A stretch of 64,000 nucleotides of DNA from Rikenellaceae bacterium. Lineage in GTDB: Bacteria > Bacteroidota > Bacteroidia > Bacteroidales > Rikenellaceae. Numbering within the stretch: position 1 is the stretch's first letter; every line of letters starts with the position of its first letter. The stretch spans positions 33,544 through 97,543 of the forward strand of contig SUZV01000003.1 in NCBI GenBank assembly GCA_015059715.1, read 5' to 3'. Positions 3,369 to 60,906 of this stretch are shown here, in pieces. The position numbers and the translations under genes are program-made. The notes under the pieces are model-generated. The model did not search any database. It worked only from the letters and a program-made list of their open reading frames with translations, and had not been told where the DNA came from.

Positions 3369-4910
3369 ATGAGAAAACTACTTTCAATTCTGAGCATTGC
3401 CTTGGTAACACTGATGGCTATCGGTTGTGAGAAGGCTGGCAATGAGAACACCCCCGGTGTAACATTCCAGTTCCAAAACGCTAAGACCACCACAACTACC
3501 GCCGAGGTGCAGATTATCCCATCGGATATCGAGGTAAACTACTTTGCACACATTGTCGAGAGTGCTGAAATTGCAGATATGAGTGATAAAGAGATTATCG
3601 ATATGTCACTCACATTAGAGGGCATCAAGGCCTACAAGGGCCCTCAGTACATCACTCGCACCTCGCTTAAGGCAGGCACCGAGTACACAGCCATCGCCTT
3701 CGCGGTGACCGAGACTGAGAGCGTAGCTCGCTATACCCTCACCACCGAGGCTGCATCTGAGCCAATTCCTGCCGATGAGTTTGAGATTGAGATAGAGGTT
3801 AAGGATATCAAAGCTACCTCGGCTGTAGCAATAGCTAAGCCTAATAGCTCGGCTAACCGCTACTACTTCCGTGTTATTACCAAGATGGAGCTCGATGCTT
3901 TTGGTATCTACAATGATGACTACCAGATTTTCGAGTACATCCTCGAGAACCCCAACTCTGGCGACTGGATTACTCAGGGCGAGACAACGCTTAACTGCCG
4001 TCTTGCTGCCGAGACCGACTACTTAGCCGTAGCATTTAACTATGAGAACTGGGAGGATATGCACAACCAGGATGCCGAGATGAAGCTCTTCCGCAAGGCA
4101 TTTACCACACCTGAGGGCGAGCCTGTTGACCCTAACTCGTTGTTCATTACCGATAACCTTGCAACCACACATACCAACTTCTCGTTGGACGTAACTCCTT
4201 CACTTGGCGAGGATGCTCACTGGACATACTACGTCTGGACAAAGAGTTCATACGAGCAGACATTGGCTACCGAGGCTAAGGCAAACATCGTGATGCGTAG
4301 TTACTTCGGCCTTAACAACATCGCTGTAGAGCAGGGCTATAGCTTCGGCGATATCATCCAGACAGATAAGCTCGGTAAGAAGGGCTCGAACACAATTACA
4401 GCCTATGAGCCACTCCACAACAATACCGAGTATGTAGTGGTACTATTCTACGTAGACCCCACAGTCACCGACCCTACAGAGGTCTACGACTACAACTACG
4501 TAGCTGTAGAGTTTAAGACCAACGCTCCATCGGCCGACAGTGTCGCAACCCTTGAGGTATCGGAGCCTATCATCGTTGGGGGAGGCTTTAGCTACAACAT
4601 AAACTTCGTTGTCAAGACCAACGACTACGCTGTAGACCTACTCGCTGGTGCACAGCTCTGGAACAACTACGAGTTCGAGAAGTATTGGGACCCCAACGAC
4701 TGGTCACAGATTCAGGCATTCTTTATGTTCCGCAAGCCTGTAGGTGAGGAGACTTTGGCAGCGGCAAAGAGTGCAGAGGGCGCGACTATTTCGTTCACAG
4801 GCTTCGACAAGGAGGACTATGTATTCTTCTTCGAGGTACTCAACGAAGAGAACACCGCGACACAGTTTGCTGTTCGCGTAAAGCCAGAAATGTTCGATAA
4901 CGCACAGTAA
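3369..4910 (+). CDS. Hypothetical lipoprotein (513 aa), multiple FN3-like beta-sandwich modules
   Basis: Signal peptide plus lipobox (LMAIGC). Recurrent module-end motifs (GTEYTAIAFAV, ETDYLAVAFNY, NTEYVVVLFYV, EDYVFFFEV). ATG 3369 is preferred over the TTG at 3363. Confidence 0.65.
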   Translation: MRKLLSILSIALVTLMAIGCEKAGNENTPGVTFQFQNAKTTTTTAEVQIIPSDIEVNYFAHIVESAEIADMSDKEIIDMSLTLEGIKAYKGPQYITRTSLKAGTEYTAIAFAVTETESVARYTLTTEAASEPIPADEFEIEIEVKDIKATSAVAIAKPNSSANRYYFRVITKMELDAFGIYNDDYQIFEYILENPNSGDWITQGETTLNCRLAAETDYLAVAFNYENWEDMHNQDAEMKLFRKAFTTPEGEPVDPNSLFITDNLATTHTNFSLDVTPSLGEDAHWTYYVWTKSSYEQTLATEAKANIVMRSYFGLNNIAVEQGYSFGDIIQTDKLGKKGSNTITAYEPLHNNTEYVVVLFYVDPTVTDPTEVYDYNYVAVEFKTNAPSADSVATLEVSEPIIVGGGFSYNINFVVKTNDYAVDLLAGAQLWNNYEFEKYWDPNDWSQIQAFFMFRKPVGEETLAAAKSAEGATISFTGFDKEDYVFFFEVLNEENTATQFAVRVKPEMFDNAQ

Positions 4911-4923
4911 TAATTGATTGACA

Positions 4924-6336
4924 ATGAAAAAACTATTTAATATATTCGCTCTACTCTCGCTCGCTGCAGGCTTTGTGGCGTGCGAGAACACAGAGCAGCA
5001 AATTCCAGACAACAAGGAGTATAGCGTTGAGCTTACGGCCGACAAGTCTGAGATTGCGGCTGATGGCTTGGATACGGCGACCTTCACCGTTAAGGTAGAT
5101 GGTAGTGTCACATCCGAAGAGGTGATGATTATCTGCCTTAATGACAACTCAGTACTTGAGAGCAACACCTTCACAACGACAACTGCGGGTGAGTACACCT
5201 TCAAGGCTACGTACAAGGGATTTACCTCGGATGCTGTTGCCATCACTGCTACGGCAACCGATAACCCACAACCTGGTCCAGAGCCCGAGCTCAACGTTGA
5301 GCTTACGGCAGACAAGACGGAGATTGTGGCAGACAACACCGACACTGTGACATTTACGGTTACGGTTAATGGCGAGGATAAGACCTCTACTGCCGAGATT
5401 ACGGTTATCAACTATAACGAGGTACTTAAAACCAATACGTTCACCGCTGACGTTGCTGGAGAGTTTGTCTTTGTAGCCAAATACGAGGGTGTGAAGTCTA
5501 ACGAGGTAACGGTTGTAGCTACTGCGGTAGAGACTCCTGTGCAGAAGAGCCTCAAGATTGAGTCTGACGTAAACCGCATCAAGGCAGATGGCACTGAGAA
5601 GGCTACATTTACGGTACTCTACGGTGAGGATGATGTTACGGCAGATGCCGAGATATACTGCACCAACCACGAGGGCGTAACCATCGAGGGCAATACATTC
5701 TCAAGTAGCACCGTTGGCTCGTACTCGTTCCGCGCACGCTACGCTGGTCAGACAACAGGCACAGCAGTAAACATCGATGTATATGACCCAGAGTTGGTTG
5801 GTAAATATGAGATTGGTGCTATCCACGAGGTAAATGGCGTTAAGGGTGTAATCTTCGCTATTAAGTCAGATAACCAGGGCGACACCTACTGCTATTTGTT
5901 CTCGATGGATGAGGAGGACTTGCAGTGGTCAACAAAATATGAGTGGTGTAATTGTACGTCGCAGCGTGGCGATTACAATACCAACGACCCATTCGACTAT
6001 TTCGGCATGAATATCGACGACTACCCAGCGTTTAAGTGGTGTAAGGAGCATGGCGAGGGCTGGTTCCTACCATCATCTACCGAGTTGCACTGGTTGTGGG
6101 AGATGCTCACCGAGGGCGAGCGTGATTTCAAGGCTCCAAGTGTTGCTAAGTACAACGCATTTATCGAGGAGAATGGTGGCGAGCCATTCTGCGAGACATA
6201 CTACTGGTCATCAAACGAGACATCGGAAGATTTGGTAGAGGTTGTTGCCTTTATGAACGATAGCGTCGTATGTCTTGATCCTAAGAAGGATAACATATAT
6301 ACAGCACGCGCCGCCTACCGCTTTAAGGTTGAGTAG
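4924..6336 (+). CDS. Lipoprotein with three bacterial Ig-like repeats and a C-terminal DUF1566 (Lcl C-terminal)-like domain
   Basis: Lipobox LAAGFVAC. Three ~80-aa repeats (ELTADKSEIAADGLDTATFTV..., ELTADKTEIVADNTDTVTFTV..., IESDVNRIKADGTEKATFTV...). C-terminal signature WFLPSSTELHWLW ... YWSSNE ... ARAAYRF. Confidence 0.7.
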   Translation: MKKLFNIFALLSLAAGFVACENTEQQIPDNKEYSVELTADKSEIAADGLDTATFTVKVDGSVTSEEVMIICLNDNSVLESNTFTTTTAGEYTFKATYKGFTSDAVAITATATDNPQPGPEPELNVELTADKTEIVADNTDTVTFTVTVNGEDKTSTAEITVINYNEVLKTNTFTADVAGEFVFVAKYEGVKSNEVTVVATAVETPVQKSLKIESDVNRIKADGTEKATFTVLYGEDDVTADAEIYCTNHEGVTIEGNTFSSSTVGSYSFRARYAGQTTGTAVNIDVYDPELVGKYEIGAIHEVNGVKGVIFAIKSDNQGDTYCYLFSMDEEDLQWSTKYEWCNCTSQRGDYNTNDPFDYFGMNIDDYPAFKWCKEHGEGWFLPSSTELHWLWEMLTEGERDFKAPSVAKYNAFIEENGGEPFCETYYWSSNETSEDLVEVVAFMNDSVVCLDPKKDNIYTARAAYRFKVE

Positions 6337-6358
6337 GTTATTAGCGATAATGCTATTA

Positions 6359-6392
6359 GGGAGGTTTTGGTGGTCCAGAACCTCCTTTTTTT
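6359..6392 (+). terminator. Rho-independent terminator after the Ig-like/DUF1566 gene
   Basis: GGAGGTT ... AACCTCC stem followed by T7. Confidence 0.75.
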
Positions 6393-6646
6393 GCCTGCGA
6401 GCGAGCGCACCTAACAGCTTGTAGCTAAGGCTATCGAAGGTGACCGCTACGCTCGCGCGACACTGGAAGGGGGTATAGGTAGACCCTTGCAGCAAAAGCA
6501 CTAAAACTTAAAGCTCCATACAACGTAGAATCTCCCGAAAAAAATGGTTCTCTTCAATACCCCTCCGCCCCCACATCTTTAGTGGCTATACTTTCACTCC
6601 TCCTTACACCCACACGATGACTATTGCGTAATTGGCAAATTATCAT

Positions 6647-6654
6647 TATCTTTG
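6647..6654 (+). promoter_or_regulatory. Putative -7 promoter box for the LRR protein gene
   Basis: TATCTTTG about 59 nt upstream of ATG 6714. Confidence 0.4.
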
Positions 6655-6713
6655 TAAAGTGGTGGTATGCACTAAGAACTGAAACGTATAAACTAATAAT
6701 AACAAAAGGTGTT

Positions 6714-9700
6714 ATGAAGAGGTTATTTTCATACTTGCTCCTTGCGACGATATGTTTTGTCGTAAGTTGCGATACAGCGTTTGACGATTCAAAGATTTGG
6801 GATAAGCTAAATGATCACGAGGCACGTATTAAACGTCTTGAGGAGCTCTGCAAGCAGATGAATACCAATATCGGGTCCTTGCAGGTGATAGTCGAGGCTT
6901 TGCAGTCAAATGACTACATCACCAACGTTGCCCCCATAATCAAGGATGGCGAGACTATTGGCTACACGATAACCTTTGCTAAGGCCGACCCGATAACCAT
7001 CTACAATGGCACGGATGGCGCAGATGGCACAGATGGTGGTGGCGCAACCCCTGTTATAGGTGTTCGTCAAGATGTCGATGGCATATACTACTGGACGCTC
7101 AACGGAGAGTGGCTCACCGACGAGCAAGGCAGCAAGGTCAAGGCGCAAGGCAGCGATGGCATGGATGGCGAGGATGGTGCTGATGGCGAGGATGGCAAGG
7201 ATGGTGTCGACGGCCAGAGTGGCATAACACCACGACTGAAGATTGTCGATGAGTACTGGTATGTGTCGTATGACGAGGGCCAGACATGGACGCAGCTCGA
7301 CAAGGCTACGGGAGATGATGGCGACACGCTATTTATCGAGGTACGTGAGGATGATGAGTGTGTATACTTTGTTTTGGCAGATGGTACGGAGCTTGTACTA
7401 CCTAAATATAATGGTGCTGAGATGCCCGAGTTGCAGAATAACAAGATATACTACACCACAACGAATGGTAAAAAGCTATTCCCTACGTATCAGGCAGGTA
7501 TCGATGCCATCATGCTCTCAAATAGCTACGAAGATGGTGTGGGCGTGATGACCTTTGATGATGATATCACCTTAATAGGCAACGCCTTCCATGACTGCAC
7601 CACGCTTGAGAGTGTGACCATCCCTGCGAGCGTTACGGAGATAGGCGTGCAGGCCTTCTACAACTGCACGTCGCTAAGCAGCGTATACTGCAAGGCCACA
7701 ACACCTCCAGCGGCCGTATATGTCGAGAACTCCATTTGGAAGCCCTTCGATGGCAATGCTCTCTATCGCAGCATCTACGTTGCTAAGGAGTCGGTCGAGA
7801 GCTACCGCGAGGATAGCTATTGGTCGAGGTACGCCTCGTCAATCAAAGCCGAGGGCGACACCACAGAGAGCACAGTGACACAGATATACTATACCACGAC
7901 GAATAACAAGCCATTGGATCTTACATATACCTTGTTCGATGCGGTATTTGCAGGCAATGTATACGATGCAGACCTGGATATGTGCGTACTCTCCTTCGAG
8001 GGCGAGCTGACCGACTTCCCACAAGCATTTAATTATGAGGATACGCTTGAATCTATAATCATCCCCGAGGGAGTTACAACGATAGCTCCATTGGCATTTG
8101 GTGGATGCTCTTCACTGTGGCGTGTAGAGCTTCCTCAGACCATCGAGAGCATAGGTTCGGATGCTTTCTTCTCGTGTAATGCGCTTTCCGAGGTACACAT
8201 CCCCGATTTGGTAACATGGTGTAATATCGATTTTAAGTCATCTATTTTTAAACCTTTGAACGAAACACAAACTCTCTATTTCGATGGCGTAGAGCTTACC
8301 GAGGTTGTAATTCCTTCGGAGGTGACCACAATTAGACCATATGCGTTCTATGGTGTTGCACAACTTACCGATGTCACCATCCACGATAGTGTTACATCTA
8401 TCGGAGATAAAGCCTTTATGTATTGTAGTAATATATCAAATATTACAATCGGAAGCGGCGTAGAGTCTATCGGCACATCGGCCTTTGCCTACTGCTCATC
8501 GCTGACGGAGGTCACGCTGCCCGAGAAGTTACAACATATCAATAGCAATCTCTTCGAGAGATGCGATATGTTGTCGAGCGTCACCCTGGGTGGTAATACA
8601 GTATCTATAGGCGATAAGGCTCTCTATAACTGCGCCTCACTTACCGAGATTACCATTCCTGCCAGTGTTACGACAATAGGCAACAGTGCCTTTAGCGGCA
8701 CATCATTAAAGGGCGTGTATATCTCGGACTTAGCGGCATGGTGCCAAATCGACTTCGTGGCGGATAGCAACCCTCTCAGTATATCTAAACTCCTATACCT
8801 CGATGGCGAATTATTGATTGATGCCAAGATACCCGATGGTGTAACAGAGATTAAGGCTTCTGCACTGCGTGATTGCGCATCACTTACCAGTGTTACACTC
8901 CCCGATAGTGTTACAGCTATTGGAGAGGATGCCTTTATGAGTTGTGGCGAGTTGACCACCTTAGACCTTGGTAACGGCGTGGTGTCGATAGGTGCTTCTG
9001 CCTTTTCTTACTGCGATTCGCTTACCGAGATTACAATTCCTGCCAGCGTAAACTCGATAGGAGATAGTGCCTTTGGATATACAAACTATACGTTGGAGCG
9101 TGTTAATATCGTAGATTTGGCCGCTTGGTGCAGTATCGACTTTGCATATAGCACATCCAACCCTGTAAAGTTTACCAACACTCTATATCTAAATGGCAGT
9201 GAGGTTACCGAGGTGACAATACCTTCAAATGTTACGGAGATTAAGCCGTACGTATTCTACAACATGTACTCGCTTACAAAGGTAGATATGCACGAGGGTG
9301 TAACCTCTATTGGTGCGTCAGCATTTGCACAGTGTCTCAATATCACAGAGATAACCATCCCTGCAAGCATCAGAGCTATTGGCAACTCAGCATTCTCGGG
9401 CTGTAGCTCGCTGTCGCGTGTCAACATCTCCGACTTGTCGGCATGGTGTAGGATAGACTTAGACGGTGCCGCAACCCCAACACAGCATACAGGGGGCCTC
9501 TATCTCAATGGTGTCGAGATTACCGAACTTACCATCCCCGAGGATATTACCGAGATTAAGCCTTACTCCTTCTATTGTTGCACATCGTTAACGAGTGTTA
9601 AGCTCCACGAAGGTATCACCAGAGTGGGTGCTAGTGCCTTCGATGGGTGCGATGGCCTAACCGAGATTACAGTGCCTGCCTCGGTAACCTTCCTCGACTA

Positions 9701-9920
9701 CTATGCATTTAATAGCAAAAACTTAGCTACGGCAACTATACTCTCGACTACGCCTTGCGAGTTGGGATATAAGAGTGTCGGTGGAGGTATCTACGAGGAG
9801 AGAACATACTATGGACAGTTTGGCAACGCTATGATATACGTCCCCTCGGAGTCGCTCTACGACTACAAGAGTGCCAGTGGATGGTATACTATGGCCGATA
9901 GCATCTACCCAATAGAGTAG
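6714..9920 (+). CDS. Large surface lipoprotein (1068 aa): coiled coil, two collagen-like G-X-Y segments, and a BspA-type leucine-rich-repeat array
   Basis: Lipobox FVVSC at ATG 6714. Heptad segment ARIKRLEELCKQMNTNIGSLQVIVEAL. GTDGADGTDGGG (7008-7043) and GSDGMDGEDGADGEDGKDGVDGQSG (7149-7223). More than 25 copies of the ~23-aa unit IPxSVTxIGxxAFxxCxxLxxV. Confidence 0.8.
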   Translation: MKRLFSYLLLATICFVVSCDTAFDDSKIWDKLNDHEARIKRLEELCKQMNTNIGSLQVIVEALQSNDYITNVAPIIKDGETIGYTITFAKADPITIYNGTDGADGTDGGGATPVIGVRQDVDGIYYWTLNGEWLTDEQGSKVKAQGSDGMDGEDGADGEDGKDGVDGQSGITPRLKIVDEYWYVSYDEGQTWTQLDKATGDDGDTLFIEVREDDECVYFVLADGTELVLPKYNGAEMPELQNNKIYYTTTNGKKLFPTYQAGIDAIMLSNSYEDGVGVMTFDDDITLIGNAFHDCTTLESVTIPASVTEIGVQAFYNCTSLSSVYCKATTPPAAVYVENSIWKPFDGNALYRSIYVAKESVESYREDSYWSRYASSIKAEGDTTESTVTQIYYTTTNNKPLDLTYTLFDAVFAGNVYDADLDMCVLSFEGELTDFPQAFNYEDTLESIIIPEGVTTIAPLAFGGCSSLWRVELPQTIESIGSDAFFSCNALSEVHIPDLVTWCNIDFKSSIFKPLNETQTLYFDGVELTEVVIPSEVTTIRPYAFYGVAQLTDVTIHDSVTSIGDKAFMYCSNISNITIGSGVESIGTSAFAYCSSLTEVTLPEKLQHINSNLFERCDMLSSVTLGGNTVSIGDKALYNCASLTEITIPASVTTIGNSAFSGTSLKGVYISDLAAWCQIDFVADSNPLSISKLLYLDGELLIDAKIPDGVTEIKASALRDCASLTSVTLPDSVTAIGEDAFMSCGELTTLDLGNGVVSIGASAFSYCDSLTEITIPASVNSIGDSAFGYTNYTLERVNIVDLAAWCSIDFAYSTSNPVKFTNTLYLNGSEVTEVTIPSNVTEIKPYVFYNMYSLTKVDMHEGVTSIGASAFAQCLNITEITIPASIRAIGNSAFSGCSSLSRVNISDLSAWCRIDLDGAATPTQHTGGLYLNGVEITELTIPEDITEIKPYSFYCCTSLTSVKLHEGITRVGASAFDGCDGLTEITVPASVTFLDYYAFNSKNLATATILSTTPCELGYKSVGGGIYEERTYYGQFGNAMIYVPSESLYDYKSASGWYTMADSIYPIE

Positions 9921-10098
9921 CTATCGCCCCGACCATCTTCGTAAAACCAGCGCGCAAGCTCTACCCTGACCCTCTCGTAGGTCATATCGGGGTTAAGCTT
10001 GCGCGTTGGTTTCTTGAGTGTATCGCCACGCATAAGACAATTGCGCTCTCTTTCGGAGTAATTACCTCTCGGGGATTTCAAAAAATCGAAGAAATAGA

Positions 10099-10106
10099 GT
10101 ATCTTT
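10099..10106 (+). promoter_or_regulatory. Putative -7 box only 5 nt before the thiL ATG (possible leaderless mRNA)
   Basis: TATCTTTG at 10099-10106; ATG at 10112. Confidence 0.3.
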
Positions 10107-10111
10107 GTAGT

Positions 10112-11047
10112 ATGAAAAAATCAGAATTTACGTTTATCGGCGATATAGCAACAATGTTTGCCACGCTACCCCATCACGGCTTTGAGCCTATTGGCGACGA
10201 CTGCACCGTACTCGATATGGGCTCCGAGTCGCTGGTTATCACTACCGATATGGTTGTCGAGGATATCCACTTTCTGCGCAACATATCCTCACCCGAGGAG
10301 GTGGCACACAAGAGCCTTATGGTTAACCTCTCGGATGTCGCAGCTATGGGAGCAAGACCCATAGCTACGCTGCTCAGCCTCTCGCTCCCCGAGTCGGCCC
10401 AGGGCGAGTGGTCCGAAGCCTTTATGCGCAGATATCACGCCGAGAGTCTTAAGGTGGGCGTAGCCCTTGTGGGTGGCGACACCACAGCATCACGCGACAG
10501 AATAACGATAAACGTCGTGGCTATAGGACGTGCGCCCAAGGAGTGTATCAAGCGACGCTCAGCAGCCAAGCCAGGAGATGTAGTATGCGTAACAGGCAAG
10601 CTTGGAGCATCATCCAAGGGTCTTGTGGATAATATGTTCGGCGACCTCGGCACCGAGGCTGCAAGGATACACCGTCTTGCTCAGGCGCGTATAGCCGAGG
10701 GCGTGTGGCTTGGCTCGCGCAGCGAGGTGCGCGCCATGATGGACGTTTCGGATGGCATAGCCTCGGACATAAGGCATATAATGGAGCAGTCGGGCGTGGG
10801 TGCCGAGATAGAGCTTAGCTCGATACCTACGGACTACGACATACGCTTTGCCACGACAGGTGGCGAGGACTATGAGCTACTGCTTAGTGTCGAGGCAACA
10901 AGCTTTGAGCAGCTTGCAAACGAGTTTGAGGAGGCAACAGGGACAACACTTACGGCCATAGGCAAGATTATAGAGGGCAGTGAGCTACGTTGGCTCGAAA
11001 ATGGACTACCCGCAACACTCGACCTAAAGGGATTTACTCACTTTTAG
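10112..11047 (+). CDS. thiL: Thiamine-monophosphate kinase
   Basis: AIR-synthase-related fold motifs (IGDDCTVL, ITTDMVVEDIHF, NLSDVAAMGA, GGDTT, DVSDGI). Confidence 0.85.
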   Translation: MKKSEFTFIGDIATMFATLPHHGFEPIGDDCTVLDMGSESLVITTDMVVEDIHFLRNISSPEEVAHKSLMVNLSDVAAMGARPIATLLSLSLPESAQGEWSEAFMRRYHAESLKVGVALVGGDTTASRDRITINVVAIGRAPKECIKRRSAAKPGDVVCVTGKLGASSKGLVDNMFGDLGTEAARIHRLAQARIAEGVWLGSRSEVRAMMDVSDGIASDIRHIMEQSGVGAEIELSSIPTDYDIRFATTGGEDYELLLSVEATSFEQLANEFEEATGTTLTAIGKIIEGSELRWLENGLPATLDLKGFTHF

Positions 11048-55094: not shown

Positions 55095-55556
55095 CTACAA
55101 GAGGGGCACAACCTCCAACGAGCGAGTAGTGGTAGCCTCAGCCTTCACCTCCTCTGGAATCTCGCACTTGGTATATACGCTTGCGACGCTTGTATCCTCC
55201 TGGCTATACATCGTGAGAGTATCGCCCTCGACAGCGAACTTATAACCCGATGCCCATATCGAGCCATCGCTATAAAGACCTGTAACAATGCTGCCACTTA
55301 CGTTATAGCTACCCTCGAAGAGCTCGTAAAAGAGTGTCCACGTCTGCTGGTATATCTGGAAAGTAGCGTCATCGTTAAAGGCTACATATACACTGAACTC
55401 TGGAGTCTCCTCATTCCACGATGTAAGTACCCACTCACCTACCAATTCTGAACTTGAAACACCGCCACCAGGCTTGTTCTGGTTGTTCTCCTTGTCGCAA
55501 CCTACGAGCATTGCTGCAAGCAATAACATCATAGATAGTATCTTGAAACTTTTCAT
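55095..55556 (-). CDS. Lipocalin-like small lipoprotein (153 aa), partner A
   Basis: Lipobox MLVGC followed by acidic/polar DKENN. Beta-rich body GEWVLTSWN...YQQTWTLFYELFEGSYNV. Paralogue of 58288..58767. Confidence 0.6.
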   Translation of the reverse strand: MKSFKILSMMLLLAAMLVGCDKENNQNKPGGGVSSSELVGEWVLTSWNEETPEFSVYVAFNDDATFQIYQQTWTLFYELFEGSYNVSGSIVTGLYSDGSIWASGYKFAVEGDTLTMYSQEDTSVASVYTKCEIPEEVKAEATTTRSLEVVPLL

Positions 55557-55589
55557 ATCGTTACTCAATTTTTGCGTTATCAAATTATA

Positions 55590-57587
55590 TTACAACCAGC
55601 CACCAGGAGTTATAGGAGCACCTGTGCCATCGTCGACCTTAACACCTGGACGTACCACCAAGGCGAACTCCTGCTCGGCCTCCATACCGCCAGTAATCTG
55701 TCCGCCACCTACCGTATTGCCGCCAGCGACATATTTTAGCTTGACGAGTGCCGAGCCAGGCTTTGTACACGTAAGAAGGAGCTTGCTACCCATAAAGCGG
55801 CAGTCTGTGATGCCGAGCTTCTCCTTCACCTCCTCTGATATTTCAGACTCAAGCATCTTAACCTGAACATTACCATCGCCAATGTAGTTGCTGATGTCGA
55901 GGATAACCTGCTCGCCGAGAGGCACTGGAATACATGTAGTACCACGCACGGCCATAAGCACACGATAAGCATCGATAAGACCAGTACCCATCTTATTTTT
56001 GTATGAGGTAAGGTTCATAGTACCACCCGTTTCGAAGTGTGCCTTTGAACCATCGAACTCAAGAGCCGATACCGAAGATACGATGATATCCTTAAGCTCG
56101 GGGAGTGTAAGCACGATGCCATTGTCCGCAGCATAAGAGATAGCCAAGGCTGCGATGCCCGACACATGTGGGCAAGCCATAGATGTACCCTGCATAAAGG
56201 CATACTTATCGCCAGGCATTGTAGATGCCACACAACCACTCTCTACTGACGAACCACTACGACGGAAGTACTCACCACCAGGAGCCGAGACGTTACAGCC
56301 ACGGTCGTAGCAAGTATAGTATGTAGGACATCCATCAGGACCTATAGACGATACAGCGATAAGCTTGTTATAGGCTGCTGGATAACCCGCTACAGCCTTA
56401 CCATCGTTACCCGCAGCGAAGATGATGATACCACCCTCGAGATTTGGATGGTTCTTAGTGGTCATAAAGTACTGGAATGCCGTCCACTCTACGCCTGTTG
56501 AGCCACTCTCGAACATATTGTCGTTCGAGATAGCACCTGCCTCGAAACCCCAAGAGTTCTGCAATACGCAAGCACCACGATCTGCGGCATACTCTACCGC
56601 TGCTGCTGTAGCATTTACACCTGCTGCGTTACCGCCCGAGATAATCTGGCATGAGAAGATACGCACACCATCGCCATTGCCCGAACCACCTGCTACGCCA
56701 GCAACACCGAAACCATTATTTGTAACAGCGGCTACAGTACCTGCCACGTGAGTACCGTGACCCTGGTCGCCATTGCGTGTCCACGTTACGCGGCCACTAT
56801 CTACGAAGTTGTAGCCATATACATCATCTGTATAGCCGTTACCATCATCATCAACACCCTCGGTACCATTCTTCTCGGCCTCGTTGACGTGCATATTAGG
56901 CTGCAAATCCTTGTGTGTGTAGCACACACCCTCGTCAACTATCGCTACTACAACATCGGGGCGACCTGTCGTAAGTTCCCACGCTGCAAAGAGGTTGATA
57001 TCGGCACCAGCCTTAGCATTTGGGAAGTCTACAGTGCCATCGTTGTTGTAGTGCCACTGTCGGGGCAGCAGCGTATCATCGAAAGGCACGCCCTCGGCAC
57101 GTGTTGTAGCTATGGTGCTCATATCTATCTCTACGCTCTCTACCTTAGGTTTATCAATCATTGTAGAGAACTGCACACGCTCTACGTCTGCAATCTTTGC
57201 AAGGCTACGAGCGGCAGCGTCGAGGTCTGCATCCTTCGAGAAGGATACTGTATACCAACGGTGCATGTTAAGCTCGCGCTTACGCTCGGCGTTAACCTTG
57301 AGGTTAAATACGGGCTTAAGCTCGTTTGCTCCGATAGATGCCACAGCCTCGTCAAGGGCTATAATGCCCGAGCGAGTAGAGACCTGAGCACTCTCAAGGT
57401 TAGAAGCAGCCTCCTCGCTGACATAGATTATAAGCTCACCCCCGATGGCATTTGCCGAGGTGTTGACGAGCTTTGCGGCTGTAGCCACCTCCTCTGCCTG
57501 ACCATTAGGCTGATCTACAGGGTCTGTGACACACGCTGCGGCCACCATACCCACCAATGCAAGAAGTAAAATTTTGGTTCTATTCAT
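55590..57587 (-). CDS. S8-family subtilisin-like serine peptidase lipoprotein (665 aa), copy A
   Basis: Lipobox VAAAC. Catalytic motifs VAIVDEGV (Asp), HGTHVAGTVAA (His) and GTSMACPHVSG (Ser). Confidence 0.9.
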   Translation of the reverse strand: MNRTKILLLALVGMVAAACVTDPVDQPNGQAEEVATAAKLVNTSANAIGGELIIYVSEEAASNLESAQVSTRSGIIALDEAVASIGANELKPVFNLKVNAERKRELNMHRWYTVSFSKDADLDAAARSLAKIADVERVQFSTMIDKPKVESVEIDMSTIATTRAEGVPFDDTLLPRQWHYNNDGTVDFPNAKAGADINLFAAWELTTGRPDVVVAIVDEGVCYTHKDLQPNMHVNEAEKNGTEGVDDDGNGYTDDVYGYNFVDSGRVTWTRNGDQGHGTHVAGTVAAVTNNGFGVAGVAGGSGNGDGVRIFSCQIISGGNAAGVNATAAAVEYAADRGACVLQNSWGFEAGAISNDNMFESGSTGVEWTAFQYFMTTKNHPNLEGGIIIFAAGNDGKAVAGYPAAYNKLIAVSSIGPDGCPTYYTCYDRGCNVSAPGGEYFRRSGSSVESGCVASTMPGDKYAFMQGTSMACPHVSGIAALAISYAADNGIVLTLPELKDIIVSSVSALEFDGSKAHFETGGTMNLTSYKNKMGTGLIDAYRVLMAVRGTTCIPVPLGEQVILDISNYIGDGNVQVKMLESEISEEVKEKLGITDCRFMGSKLLLTCTKPGSALVKLKYVAGGNTVGGGQITGGMEAEQEFALVVRPGVKVDDGTGAPITPGGWL

Positions 57588-57649
57588 AGTTGTTTTAAGT
57601 TAAATGTTTCAGTTCTGGAGGCATAGCCTAATTACACTCTCTCAAGATG

Positions 57650-57657
57650 CAAAGATA
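57650..57657 (-). promoter_or_regulatory. Putative -7 promoter box for S8 copy A
   Basis: Minus-strand TATCTTTGCATCTTGA. The same TTTGCATCTTGA extension is found upstream of S8 copy B. Confidence 0.5.
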
Positions 57658-57889
57658 TAAAAAAATCGTTAATTGAAAGCATTTGGGGAATAATTTGCTG
57701 TGTAATTAGCAATTGTATTACTCTGTCATGTAATTTTCTAAACGCGAGTAAGTGATGACAGGTAGCGAGATTGAAAAATTTAGGGAGATTAGAGACTTGG
57801 GAAGGGGGAAGGAGAAATGCTCCCCTTAAAAGCTGCTTATTGAATAACCAACACGACCAAATTTTTGATTAGAAGGCTGTAGATGCGGC

Positions 57890-57985
57890 CTTATCGTCCT
57901 ATTGTCTTATCGTCCTATCGTCCTATTGTCCTATTGTCTTATCGTCCTATTGTCTTATTGTCCTATTGTCTTATTGTCCTATTGT
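57890..57985. repeat. Tandem array of 12 octamers CYTATYGT
   Basis: Units read in order: CTTATCGT CCTATTGT CTTATCGT CCTATCGT CCTATTGT CCTATTGT CTTATCGT CCTATTGT CTTATTGT CCTATTGT CTTATTGT CCTATTGT. A T-tract follows, then a degenerate inverted copy (57997-58033). Confidence 0.9.
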
Positions 57986-58050
57986 CTTTATTTTTTAGGA
58001 CATTATGACGTTAAGACCATAAGACATTAAGAGGTCGAGTATCATAACAA

Positions 58051-58157
58051 CGAATACCCTTAAACTACCCCTTAGCTCGCTACAAGCGAGCGAACTACCC
58101 TTTAGCAAGCTCTGCTTGCGCACTACCCTTTCCGCTTTAGCGGTGACCGCAAGGTCA
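58051..58157. repeat. Periodic (28-30 bp) ACTACCCYTT motif, each copy followed by a different short GC hairpin
   Basis: ACTACCCCTTAG at 58064, ACTACCCTTTAG at 58094, ACTACCCTTTCC at 58122, plus ATACCCTTAA at 58054. Hairpins are GCTCGC/GCGAGC, GCAAGC/GCTTGC, CCGC/GCGG and TGACC/GGTCA. Confidence 0.8.
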
Positions 58158-58183
58158 TCCACATTTGTTGTCAAAAGGGGTTA

Positions 58184-58269
58184 GATGTGACCTCGATAAA
58201 GAGATTGCCTCGAATGGGACATACTCGGTGTATTTCCCATTCGAGGCAATGATTGAGAGGTCGCAGATG
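58184..58269. repeat. REP-like compound palindromic element, copy B
   Basis: Inner 16-bp stem ATTGCCTCGAATGGGA / TCCCATTCGAGGCAAT. Shares the flanks GATAAAGA and AGAGGTCGCAGATG with copy A at 40872-40974. Lies 19 nt past the stop of the lipocalin-like gene. Confidence 0.75.
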
Positions 58270-58287
58270 CTGCCTTATAATCGAAAA

Positions 58288-58767
58288 TTATAGGTAGGGG
58301 GTAACATCTACAACTCCACGTGTCGCCGTAGCCTCCTCCTTAACATCCTCGGGAATGGTACATGCCTCATATACCGAGGTGATAGGATTAGCATCCTTGC
58401 TTACAAGAGTCAGCGTGTTGCCATCTGCTGAGACACCTCCTGTATACTCGCACTTCCACGCGCCAGCATCGAAGTAGCTACCCGACAAGGTGCCACCATC
58501 AACGTTATACTCGCCCTCGTAGAACTGATAATCGAGGGTATACATCTGCTGATAGAGGGCAAACAAACCTGTGCTGAAGCTGATGTATACGTTAAACTCG
58601 GCAGGCGCATCATTTACCGACACGAGCTTCCACTCCTTCTCTATATTCTCGAATGAGCCCGACTGGTCCACAGGCTTCTTATCGTTGTTATCATCACCCC
58701 CTTTATCGCAAGCTACAGCTGCCAATAGTACAACGAAAGCCAATGATAATGTCTTAAAGATCTTCAT
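58288..58767 (-). CDS. Lipocalin-like small lipoprotein (159 aa), partner B
   Basis: Lipobox AAVAC followed by DKGGDDNND. Contains YQQMYTLDYQFYEGEYNV and CTIPEDVKEEATATR. Confidence 0.6.
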   Translation of the reverse strand: MKIFKTLSLAFVVLLAAVACDKGGDDNNDKKPVDQSGSFENIEKEWKLVSVNDAPAEFNVYISFSTGLFALYQQMYTLDYQFYEGEYNVDGGTLSGSYFDAGAWKCEYTGGVSADGNTLTLVSKDANPITSVYEACTIPEDVKEEATATRGVVDVTPYL

Positions 58768-58798
58768 ATTTATATACTTTTTATCGTTCTACAACTTA

Positions 58799-60865
58799 TT
58801 ACAACCACGCTCCATTGTCGTTATTATCACGAGCCACGATGACAACATCCTTCTCCATAACCTTACCGCCTGGAGTGCCAACCTCGCCCTTCACGCCAGC
58901 AACATACTTAACGGTGATTGTACCTACACCAGCATTCTTGCACGTTAGATATATCTTATTGCTAAAGTAGTCAACCTTATCGATGCCCAAGCGGTCCTTG
59001 GTCTCGTCAGAGATTGAGTACTCAGCGTAGCTTGTCACCTTGATATTACCATCACCGATGAGTGAGCTAACGTTAATCTCGAGCTCCTGACCCACGATAG
59101 CAGGCACACAGATAGCACCACGCACGCTCTGGATGGCCATCAAGGCATCAATCTTACCTGTACCCATATTGCCCTTATAAGGGTCAAGCGACATGGTACC
59201 GCTCATATCTGCCCTATAGTAATCGTAGATATACTTGATACCTGTAAGCTTATCGTCGATATTACGTACCGATGATGTGATGATATCGTAGAGCTGGGTA
59301 TTAGTAAGCGTAATGCCATTCTCTACGGCATACGAGAGCACAAGAGCCGCAATACCCGACACATGAGGACATGCCATTGACGTACCCTGCATATAACCAT
59401 AGTCCGAACCATAAGGCTCATTGGTTATGGTATTTATAGTCTCCGAAGGCACTGTCGAGAGCACACAGCCATCATACTTATATTGACGGTTCTCAATTGC
59501 AAGGTCACCACCTGGGGCAGCAACATTACAGCCAAACTTATAGTTTGTATAAGTTGTTGGCAGACCATCGGGAGCATAGGCAGTAACGGCGATAAACTCA
59601 TTGTAGGCACCAGGGTAGTCAGCCGCTGCCTTAGCATCGTTACCTGCAGCGAAGATAGCCACGTTGCCATGCATTGCCGAGCAACCACTCTTGCTCACAA
59701 AGTAACGCAAACCAGCAAGCTCAACACCATAGTAAGACTGGTACTCGCCGTCCGACATTGTCTGACCCTCGCGGAGTGGATAGCCCCACGAGTTCTGTAT
59801 GATAGATGCACCCATATCTGCGGCATACTCAAAGCCCTTAGCATTTTGCGCCATAGAGCTATTGTTCTGACCGTCAAATATCTGAATAGACATAATACGC
59901 ACACCATCATTATTACCCGAGCCACCTGCTACACCTGCTACACCTACGCCATTGTTATTTACAGCAGCTACAGTACCTGCAACGTGTGTACCATGACCTG
60001 TATCACCATCCCAGAACGTACCATCATCGGTTTCAATAAACTTACCCTTGTCCCAAGAGATGTTACCATTTTCGGCAACACAGTTATAGCCGTGGATGTC
60101 ATCAACAATGCCATTGCCATCGTCGTCGACACCCTCAGCACCGCCCATCTCGGCTTCGTTTACCCACATATTGGCCGCAAGGTCAGGGTGGTTATACTTA
60201 ACACCCTCGTCCATAACAGCAACGACTACCTGACGACTACCTGTGGTATGTTTCCAGGCTGCATAGGCGTTGATATCCTCACCCTTAACCGAGTACTGGT
60301 AGATAGACTTCAAGCCAGGGTTGTCGTAGTGCCACTGCAACTCAAGCATAGGGTCATTAAAGGGGAGCTCCTCCGAGTTACGTGTTGTAAATTTCTCTGC
60401 TACAGGGTGTGCAGCCGAAACCTGTGGTCGCTGTACGAGAGTAGAGTACTGTACGCGCTTAACCTCGCTCAGTTCGGCAAACTTCTCGGCTACGGCTTCG
60501 AGCTTAGCCTCCTCGTCGAACTTAACGACATACCAGCGGTGAAGGCCCTTAGCACGCTTCTCGTCACCATTGATATTAAGGTTGAAGACTGGAGCGATAG
60601 AGGTTGCATCATACTCTACAGCTACAGCATCGAGAGCATCGTTACCCGAGCGTGTTGCGGTCTCTGCCGTAGCCCACAAATCTGCGGTCTGCTCATCAAC
60701 ATAGAGGATAAGCTCACCTGCTACAGCATTCTCAGAGGTGTTGATAATCTTCTTAGCCACACCACCCTGCTGCGATACAACGCCCTCATCCATTACTGGA
60801 TCGGCAACACAAGCTGCCGCGAGAAGTGCCACTAAGGCAAACAATAAAATTCTACCCTTGTTCAT
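58799..60865 (-). CDS. S8-family subtilisin-like serine peptidase lipoprotein (688 aa), copy B
   Basis: Lipobox LAAAC at ATG 60865. Catalytic motifs VAVMDEGV, HGTHVAGTVAA and GTSMACPHVSG. Confidence 0.9.
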   Translation of the reverse strand: MNKGRILLFALVALLAAACVADPVMDEGVVSQQGGVAKKIINTSENAVAGELILYVDEQTADLWATAETATRSGNDALDAVAVEYDATSIAPVFNLNINGDEKRAKGLHRWYVVKFDEEAKLEAVAEKFAELSEVKRVQYSTLVQRPQVSAAHPVAEKFTTRNSEELPFNDPMLELQWHYDNPGLKSIYQYSVKGEDINAYAAWKHTTGSRQVVVAVMDEGVKYNHPDLAANMWVNEAEMGGAEGVDDDGNGIVDDIHGYNCVAENGNISWDKGKFIETDDGTFWDGDTGHGTHVAGTVAAVNNNGVGVAGVAGGSGNNDGVRIMSIQIFDGQNNSSMAQNAKGFEYAADMGASIIQNSWGYPLREGQTMSDGEYQSYYGVELAGLRYFVSKSGCSAMHGNVAIFAAGNDAKAAADYPGAYNEFIAVTAYAPDGLPTTYTNYKFGCNVAAPGGDLAIENRQYKYDGCVLSTVPSETINTITNEPYGSDYGYMQGTSMACPHVSGIAALVLSYAVENGITLTNTQLYDIITSSVRNIDDKLTGIKYIYDYYRADMSGTMSLDPYKGNMGTGKIDALMAIQSVRGAICVPAIVGQELEINVSSLIGDGNIKVTSYAEYSISDETKDRLGIDKVDYFSNKIYLTCKNAGVGTITVKYVAGVKGEVGTPGGKVMEKDVVIVARDNNDNGAWL

Positions 60866-60906
60866 AGTTATTAAAAAATTAAAAATAATCATACCACTTC
60901 AAGATG

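Follow-up and report, generated by a model that had tools for sequence, protein, structure and literature searches.

Tandem arrays of 7-nt units, known as STRR (short tandemly repeated repetitive) sequences, occur at many intergenic sites of one lineage, the heterocystous cyanobacteria; some form hairpins, and their function is unknown. The subunit of the pneumococcal BOX element is about 45 nt long. BOX itself, in Streptococcus pneumoniae, is organised as boxA-(boxB)n-boxC; new insertions are slow to arise, and unit number serves as a VNTR marker in pneumococcus (PMC3049150). REP sequences are recognised by a terminal GTAG (or CGTC) tag directly at the stem end, and the study that describes them reported no GTAG REPs from Bacteroidetes (PMC3733652).

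The locus studied here lies in a window, by which we mean the whole 64,000-nt stretch of DNA that was analysed, corresponding to bases 33544-97543 of contig 3 of a Rikenellaceae genome (1.94 Mb, 20 contigs, 49% G+C). The window holds an array of 12 octamers between two modules, each consisting of an S8 peptidase gene and a small lipoprotein gene. We conclude, with a probability of roughly 0.8, that these octamers form the expanded arm of a single copy of an interspersed repeat that is non-coding, palindromic and modular and is confined to a small clade of uncultured ruminant-gut Alistipes (Rikenellaceae). The repeat family is undescribed, lineage-restricted and interspersed, with an internal VNTR, and is nearest in kind to BOX, BrickBuilt, REP/BIME and STRR. 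Our search of the literature found no description of it.

Like BOX, the family is modular, with fixed ends and variable internal tandem subunits; it is intergenic, structured, confined to one species group and without a transposase of its own (PMC3049150). Unlike BOX, whose subunit measures tens of bases, it uses 8-nt units, these form the arms of a hairpin, the element is nested inside a REP-like family, and no similarity in sequence is apparent. BrickBuilt, from Porphyromonas gingivalis (also Bacteroidales), is likewise species-restricted, intergenic and present in tens of copies, with a spacer-less tandem array between leader and tail modules and small inverted-repeat ends (PMC4596501). It differs from our family in its 23-nt unit and in its promoter elements, of which none was recognised here (PMC4596501), and the opposed inverted arm of the same unit and the sequence itself also set our family apart. 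The likeness to BOX and BrickBuilt is one of architecture only, and none in sequence would be expected.

Like REP, BIME and REPIN sequences, the family consists of extragenic palindromes that reach high copy number, lie mainly behind genes and form clusters in which the orientation alternates (PMC3733652, PMC2817692). The boxes that surround our element also resemble REPs in carrying a GTAG-containing tag beside a short GC hairpin whose stem shows compensatory changes; they read as hairpin + TAAAGGGTAG, so that the GTAG is displaced, standing 6 nt from the stem rather than directly at its end. Unlike REP/RAYT systems, the five genomes that we searched had no Y1/RAYT gene, and the octamer hairpin is AT-rich, much longer and built from tandem units. 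With STRR the family shares short-unit tandem arrays dispersed between genes in one lineage, in another phylum and with another unit and other flanks. To our knowledge, STRR arrays have not been described as the arms of a capped palindrome nested in REP-like boxes.

The octamer array and its surroundings in the window

The octamer arm (57890..57985, plus strand) consists of 12 perfect head-to-tail CYTATYGT units in which C/T toggling is confined to positions 2 and 6; on the gene strand, the unit reads ACRATARG. The two-unit pattern CYTATYGTCYTATYGT gave 11 overlapping matches across 57890-57985, with 0 expected from 100 shuffles. At 57890-57988, TRF reported both a period of 8 (11.9 copies, 85% matches) and a period of 16 (6.2 copies, 91%), and it placed a second, weaker period-8 array at 57995-58032. 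The arm is the expanded and strain-variable side of the hairpin. It is followed on the plus strand by the T-rich loop CTTTATTTTTT (57986..57996), which is kept in most genomic copies and unpaired in the predicted folds, and then by the inverted arm (57997..58031), about four degenerate units ACNTTARG / ACCATAAG that are imperfect reverse complements of the octamer. The inverted-arm motif AAGACCATAAGAC has about 100 matches in the genome with at most one mismatch.

The inverted arm is closed by a cap motif, AGGTCGAGTATCA (58032..58044, plus strand), related to ATGGTTGCGGAC, the motif that closes the opposite arm in full copies; in relatives such as G154, the cap motif is the hairpin loop. A short conserved spacer with the sequence ..CAACAACGAAWACCC (58045..58059, plus strand) leads from the cap to the REP-like boxes (58060..58143, plus strand). 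There are three of these, ACTACCCYTT(AGC), and the short GC hairpin that comes after each one is different. The outermost module is the terminal hairpin TGACCGCAAGGTCA (58144..58157, plus strand), which has compensatory changes relative to the common TCACC..GGTGA form. The window copy, spanning about 57890-58157, is a half composite, made up of octamer arm, loop, inverted arm, cap, spacer, three boxes and terminal hairpin and lacking the left-hand cap and the left-hand boxes. Self-comparison depth agreed with these limits: the block 57880-58160 is repeated in about 26-76 copies, depth falls to 2-3 at about 58160, and the left side is unique.

The promoter consensus of Bacteroidetes has a -7 box of the form TAnnTTTG. 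Reading from the sequence, we placed such a box, TATCTTTG, at 57650..57657 (minus strand), ahead of the S8 peptidase gene that lies downstream (55590-57587, minus strand). Sister lineages have kept this box together with the sequence around it, and the -7 region of S8 copy B is near-identical in genome G111. The array lies 233 bp upstream of the box, its fixed end is at -302 from the S8 ATG, and it is in no reading frame; the ORFs that cross it are 41-42 codons long, with a text derived from the repeat.

Folding of 57880-58050 predicted an imperfect stem of about 35 bp for either strand, in which the inverted arm would pair with four to five octamer units and the units beyond about four have no pairing partner. 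The predicted minimum free energies were -38.3 kcal/mol for minus-strand RNA, -38.9 for plus-strand RNA and -14.8 for DNA, with z-scores of -4.5, -3.7 and -3.9, respectively, and none of the shuffled sequences folded equally well. Mismatches interrupt the AT-rich stem at intervals of about 8 nt. Sequence, TRF, shuffles and folds thus confirm what the original prediction had described: 12 octamers with two toggling positions, a T-tract, a degenerate inverted copy and an imperfect hairpin.

Some familiar classes of element could be set aside. An intrinsic terminator was rejected since the T-tract forms the loop that joins the two arms, the stem is rich in AT, and neither strand gives a hairpin followed by a U-tail. 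A CRISPR was rejected since the octamers run head to tail with no unique spacers between them. An Rfam scan of 57000-59000 at a permissive threshold returned only sub-threshold miRNA-hairpin look-alikes, of which the best, a model for a plant miRNA precursor, scored 26 bits where the gathering score is 84. The view that the array is non-coding and neither a CRISPR nor a standard terminator was borne out.

The repeat family in the genome and in related lineages

A three-unit octamer pattern matched 211 times in the genome, and a reversed control pattern did not match at all. The search of the rest of the genome for octamers that had been proposed for this locus yielded 48 arrays with three or more units each, which together hold 296 units. 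An array typically has 3-6 units; the maximum is 35, and the 12-unit array of the window is among the four longest. Because the genomes are MAGs, assembly may have influenced copy numbers and some of the joins. The four unit variants are nearly equally frequent (80/68/52/50) and their order is close to random. The 16-bp super-period noticed in the window array, although present there, was not found genome-wide. All changes at the toggling positions, and those giving the rarer variants (..CAT, ..ACC..), are transitions that would preserve G-U or A-U pairs on the strand reading ACRATARG.

Copies of the composite lie in about 45 gene spacers, most of the arrays are embedded in one, and the flanks of the arrays are conserved. 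We mapped seven short modules that recur in the order h-L-O-I-C-S-H: inverted REP-like boxes (h), the cap GTCCGCAACCAT (L), the octamer arm (O), a T-rich loop, the inverted arm of three or four units (I), the second cap AGGTCGRGTATCA (C), a spacer (S) and REP-like boxes (H). A terminal hairpin module, with 68 copies in the genome, often follows the outer boxes. The arm-closing motifs GTCCGCAACCAT and AGGTCGAGTATC agree as imperfect inverted partners at about 8 of 12 positions, and because of this the core is a capped palindrome with tandem-octamer arms. The composite as a whole is an imperfect palindrome on a larger scale, which leaves it without ends that can be assigned uniquely.

The REP-like boxes, ACTACYCTTTAGC, number about 130 in the genome at one mismatch or fewer, and clusters of them such as h4 H4 flank the octamer element. 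Comparison of copies reveals compensatory changes in the stems of the boxes (ACTACCCYTT plus a GC hairpin that varies) and of the terminal TGACC..GGTCA hairpin. Boxes and terminal modules also form a family of their own, with occasional 30-nt tandem runs such as that at 104250-104360 of contig 8.

On a crude ORF-based gene map (88% coding), 46 of the 48 arrays are intergenic, and the ORFs that contain the other two are taken to be spurious. Relative to the flanking genes, 14 arrays are ++, 11 are --, 10 lie between convergent and 7 between divergent genes, with no orientation bias. Dispersed repeats with at least three other copies make up 12.5% of intergenic DNA versus 0.2% of coding DNA. The neighbours of the arrays include genes for NAPRTase, ribosomal proteins L28 and L33, dihydroorotate dehydrogenase, a TonB-dependent receptor and a RecF-like ATPase; among these neighbours, we found no link between the repeat family and proteases or surface proteins.

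The same octamer arms also occur with a second loop type, GCTGCCGATTTT. In positions 38000-50000 of contig 16 (segment L120), four successive spacers behind co-directional genes each hold an octamer hairpin with this loop, with arrays at 2821-2995, 3700-4095, about 5800-5900 and about 8300-8450 of the segment. One of these arrays has 35 units that face a long inverted arm of many units, and the same four spacers carry a repeated intrinsic terminator (TCGGGGTCTTCGCAAGGAG.CTCCGA plus a T-run). The genes of this cluster, the densest of contig 16, encode a TPR protein, a 23S-IVS-type protein, three proteins without a Pfam match and a RecF-like ATPase, and we found nothing that ties them to the repeats. 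The three proteins without a match, of 388, 611 and 571 aa, are consecutive (4180-5346, 5963-7798 and 8515-10230 of the segment, minus strand) and adjoin the 23S-rRNA-IVS-type protein. Self-comparison of the genome also brought out long tandem arrays at 147-1561 of contig 16 and 100218-101370 of contig 15, with periods of about 66 and 69 nt.

Outside this genome, the octamer pattern gave no arrays in 40 relatives, and an exact 20-mer of the arm/cap junction gave no match in 185,579 species genomes. A degenerate arm-plus-cap pattern, run on the same 185,579 genomes (one per species), found 87 stretches, all in seven Rikenellaceae or 'Alistipes sp.' MAGs that came from the hindgut of goat, yak and water deer or from comparable sources. 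The congener G214 also has the arm-plus-cap motif. G154 and G149 arrange the parts differently: a hairpin is followed by a T-tract, the inverted arm, the cap (as loop), an octamer or nonamer arm, an A-tract and then heptamers of the CTAACAA type in a row. Units of 9 nt are found in G167. What G000 (the genome of the window), G154, G149 and G167 have in common is the hexamer TARGAC / GTCYTA and the cap GAGGTCGRGTATCA, whereas unit length (8 or 9), flanks and module order differ. REP-like boxes occur without the octamer element in G111, G114 and G080, and the closest species by S8 identity (G111 and G123 at 84%, G119 at 82%) do not have it. Because the boxes occur alone and the closest species are without the octamer element, the composite must be built from independent repeat families of patchy distribution.

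Our search for a mobiliser was negative. The Y1 transposase domain PF01797, which the same search detected in 6 of 14 control genomes, had no match in G000, G154, G149, G111 or G167 (MAGs 84-94% complete). Self-BLAST of this MAG, in which an IS may have escaped assembly, found no near-identical repeats above 700 bp and no IS-like multi-copy segment; its other hits were 75-85% paralogues and the two long tandem arrays. Atypical copies on contig 3 had no adjacent transposase. At the window locus, no clean target-site duplication was seen: strain type P0122 has ATAAGGYCACATCT..CC on both sides of the composite, both resemble two native motifs of the terminator cassette described below, and its array ends in ATAAGG. 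We infer the 'mobile' character of the family from its distribution only, because no transposase, parent IS or clean target-site duplication was found.

Spacer history and variation between strains

On metagenome contigs of sister lineages, in which S8 copy B is 85% identical, the genes follow one another in the same order: S8, lipoprotein, S8, lipoprotein, C10 peptidase. The inter-module spacer is 273-315 nt long in three of these lineages (L130, L133 and L136) versus 700 nt here, and the shorter spacer consists of a terminator cassette only, with no array. The cassette starts 1 nt past the stop codon and ends in CCTTCTAATCAAAAATT. In the window, it is split. Its 5' end, the first 26 bases, lies at 58262..58287 (minus strand), 1 nt past the stop codon that ends the gene of the small lipoprotein (58288-58767, minus strand), and its 3' end, the last 26 bases, lies at 57860..57885 (minus strand) and matches positions 103-128 of the intact sister-species cassette. 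Between the two are the composite and a different hairpin (58207..58247, minus strand), located 3' of the lipoprotein gene. This hairpin is likely the terminator of module A, because it occupies the place of the terminator hairpin in the sister-species cassette.

The site of the octamer composite is empty in L130, L133 and L136 and filled in all conspecific strains; the orthologous spacer of G111 has REP-like boxes and no octamers. Since sister lineages have the same gene order without the composite, comparison of the spacers shows it to be an insertion into an older terminator cassette, later than the duplication of the modules. The two-module arrangement of S8 and small lipoprotein genes (55095-60892 in the window), followed by the C10 peptidase gene, is also seen in L130, L133, L136 and L148, and its conservation in sister species means that the tandem duplication is old. 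Empty-site comparison at two further loci, using genomes of the nearest species, met with lost synteny and mainly with other repeat families.

The terminator cassette, or 'T-element', is found throughout the genus and is about 105-128 nt long, starts 1-2 nt past the stop of a co-directional gene, begins with TTTTCGATTATAAGGC and has a hairpin; instances are the two ends in the window, L130:3228-3355 and L146 (contig 3 of G111, 6950-7850). The cassette is itself dispersed. It has 19 BLAST matches in this genome, several of them full-length and 1-2 nt past a stop codon, and many matches in all five of the nearest species, at up to 98% identity and with several tandem copies in G111. Composites often adjoin it.

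Unit number at the window locus depended on how closely the strains were related. The array had 12 units in 10 of 10 assemblies from different samples that encode the identical lipoprotein and have at least 99.9% identity over 5.4 kb, and the 35-, 12- and 4-unit arrays of contig 16 were identical in 7 of 7 assemblies of strains at least 99.9% identical; assemblies display the majority form only. More distant conspecific strains (96.7-97.6% identity over 10-20 kb, those for the window locus taken from the 90% cluster of S8 copy B) had 8, 5 or 3 units, compared with 12 in the window type. The promoter-side end of the array was at the same base in all conspecific strains, 302 nt before the S8 start codon, and two strain types carried a second hairpin element in tandem at this locus. 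The comparison of unit number across strains that the original prediction had proposed thus showed length polymorphism between strains about 97% identical and none within a clonal type.

Adding one AGG/AAG unit pair to the 3-unit form gives the 5-unit form, and the window form starts with reiterated unit pairs. Because unit pairs are added or reiterated in this way, two-unit slippage would explain the 16-bp super-period, which had been proposed as a feature of the array and stands as a local one. The further suggestion that the 16-bp pairs are nearly in helical phase does not hold: 16 bp is about 1.5 turns, which puts consecutive pairs on opposite faces of the helix.

Other loci varied as well, with 5/5/7/7/8 units at one, 4 or 5 units at another, and at a third either none or 22 or 23. 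A fourth shows an inversion: conspecific strains with identical unique flanks carry the central octamer hairpin element in opposite orientations, 343 bp being reverse-aligned at 82%. This locus (L153 versus L151 and L152) is about 8.5-9 kb upstream of the NAPRTase gene, near 32139-32477 of contig 11, and the inversion is consistent with flipping between inverted REP-like boxes. Two contigs (L164:2807-3501 and L172:2717-3501) have the array and S8 gene preceded by other genes rather than by an S8/lipoprotein module, namely the gene of an Obg GTPase, beyond which lies that of an integrase, or frr; these joins are either recombination at the repeats or chimeric assembly.

Interpretations of the array

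We read the family as a selfish or neutral VNTR repeat because its copies are dispersed, excluded from genes, independent of orientation and of what the neighbouring genes do, restricted to a lineage, present in some species and absent from others, variable between strains in length and orientation, and stable within clones. Its basic unit is a hairpin element consisting of a cap, (CYTATYGT)n, a T-rich loop, about four inverted degenerate units and a cap, usually nested in this genome between inverted clusters of REP-like 'ACTACCCTTTAGC + hairpin' boxes. Slipped-strand mispairing would change unit number, often in two-unit (16-bp) steps, and recombination between inverted modules may rearrange copies by inversion and tandem duplication. 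The family would be a genomic passenger tolerated only between genes, and the window copy would do no more than lengthen and structure the spacer from the module-A terminator to the module-B promoter.

A counterpoint to the passenger interpretation is the conservation of TARGAC/GTCYTA between species despite differing spacing and flanks. Passenger drift does not obviously predict this, and the hexamer could be recognised by a protein. We would put forward, as a speculation that is rather doubtful, that the capped TARGAC-octamer hairpins are substrates of an unrecognised, RAYT-independent system in a few ruminant-gut Alistipes, based on a protein or on hairpin-templated copying. Such a system would recognise cap and hexamer, seed copies by terminator cassettes or REP-like boxes, and extend the arms unit by unit.

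The octamer arms might also be arrays of sites, with TARGAC / GTCYTA every 8-9 bp and closed by caps, for a lineage-specific DNA- or ssDNA-binding protein. The protein might spread the element, as a transposase or nuclease that has escaped recognition, or it might be a nucleoid or host factor recruited to spacers. The hexamer and the cap GAGGTCGRGTATCA are conserved in the four genomes while the rest differs, the second loop type GCTGCCGATTTT has the same arms, the two arm-closing motifs are related to each other, and the family is patchily distributed among close species, all of which would suit a binding protein. However, no candidate was found, PF01797 being absent from the five genomes and no IS-like multi-copy segment being present; common descent with homogenisation by slippage could also give the conservation, and the arrays are not associated with any gene function. 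We consider a binding protein unlikely. An array of regulator sites specific to this locus, which the original prediction had entertained, is unsupported, as octamers lie at about 45 unrelated spacers beside housekeeping genes.

A role in RNA, in which the hairpin in a 3'UTR or spacer transcript stabilises the upstream mRNA or stops read-through, as proposed for REP and BOX, strikes us as quite unlikely. The transition-only unit variants could hint at a constraint at the RNA level, being wobble-compatible on the ACRATARG strand, which is the gene strand in the window; both strands are predicted to fold well, many copies come directly after terminator cassettes, and the REP-like box hairpins have compensatory changes. 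Against this, the arrays have no orientation bias and some lie between divergent genes, the T-tract is in the loop and so makes no hairpin-plus-U-tail terminator on either strand, the units beyond about four are unpaired, and the best Rfam match stayed at 26 bits against 84.

It is highly improbable that the array is a phase-variation tract, in which octamers are frequently gained or lost and S8 peptidase expression is thereby switched or tuned. Short-unit repeat number differs between strains here, with 3, 5, 8 or 12 units at the exact site among conspecific strains, as it does at the contingency loci of phase-variable genes in Haemophilus and Neisseria, and the slippage-prone tract that had been suggested is real on an evolutionary scale. 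The suggestion fails as regards a switch. Unit number was 12 in all 10 clonal-type assemblies, with the 35-unit array identical in seven, and since the array is 233 bp from the -7 box and in no ORF, unit number cannot alter promoter spacing or frame. Unlike contingency loci, the family lies outside ORFs and the promoter spacer, is clone-stable, occurs in about 45 unrelated spacers, with like arrays flanking housekeeping genes, and has mixed unit variants rather than a homogeneous tract. There was no sign that the array controls the neighbouring protease gene. The idea that the array is the scar of the tandem duplication that created the two S8/lipoprotein modules, prompted by its position between them, has next to no probability and is refuted by the sister lineages (S8 84-85% identical), which have both modules and, in three cases, only the array-free 273-315 nt cassette, by G111, with boxes and no octamers, and by the presence of the array sequence at about 45 other loci.

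The interspersed-repeat interpretation comes essentially to the outcome that the original prediction had set against its own proposals, namely a widespread mobile or REP family with no local function. It removes the tempting reading of the array as a regulatory or phase-variable tract for a surface protease, and it documents undescribed, fast-evolving, nested intergenic repeats in small-genome, uncultured gut Bacteroidales. Such modules account for about one-eighth of the intergenic DNA of this genome, and they vary in unit number, orientation and tandem copy number between strains about 97% identical. Owing to this variation, they are useful as strain markers for ruminant metagenomes, and they are likely to be behind breaks in contigs and chimeric joins in MAGs. 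How repeats spread without a recognisable transposase is a problem common to BOX and the CGTC-type REPs, and the present family offers unusually clear material for it, with one site empty, filled and inverted among public assemblies.
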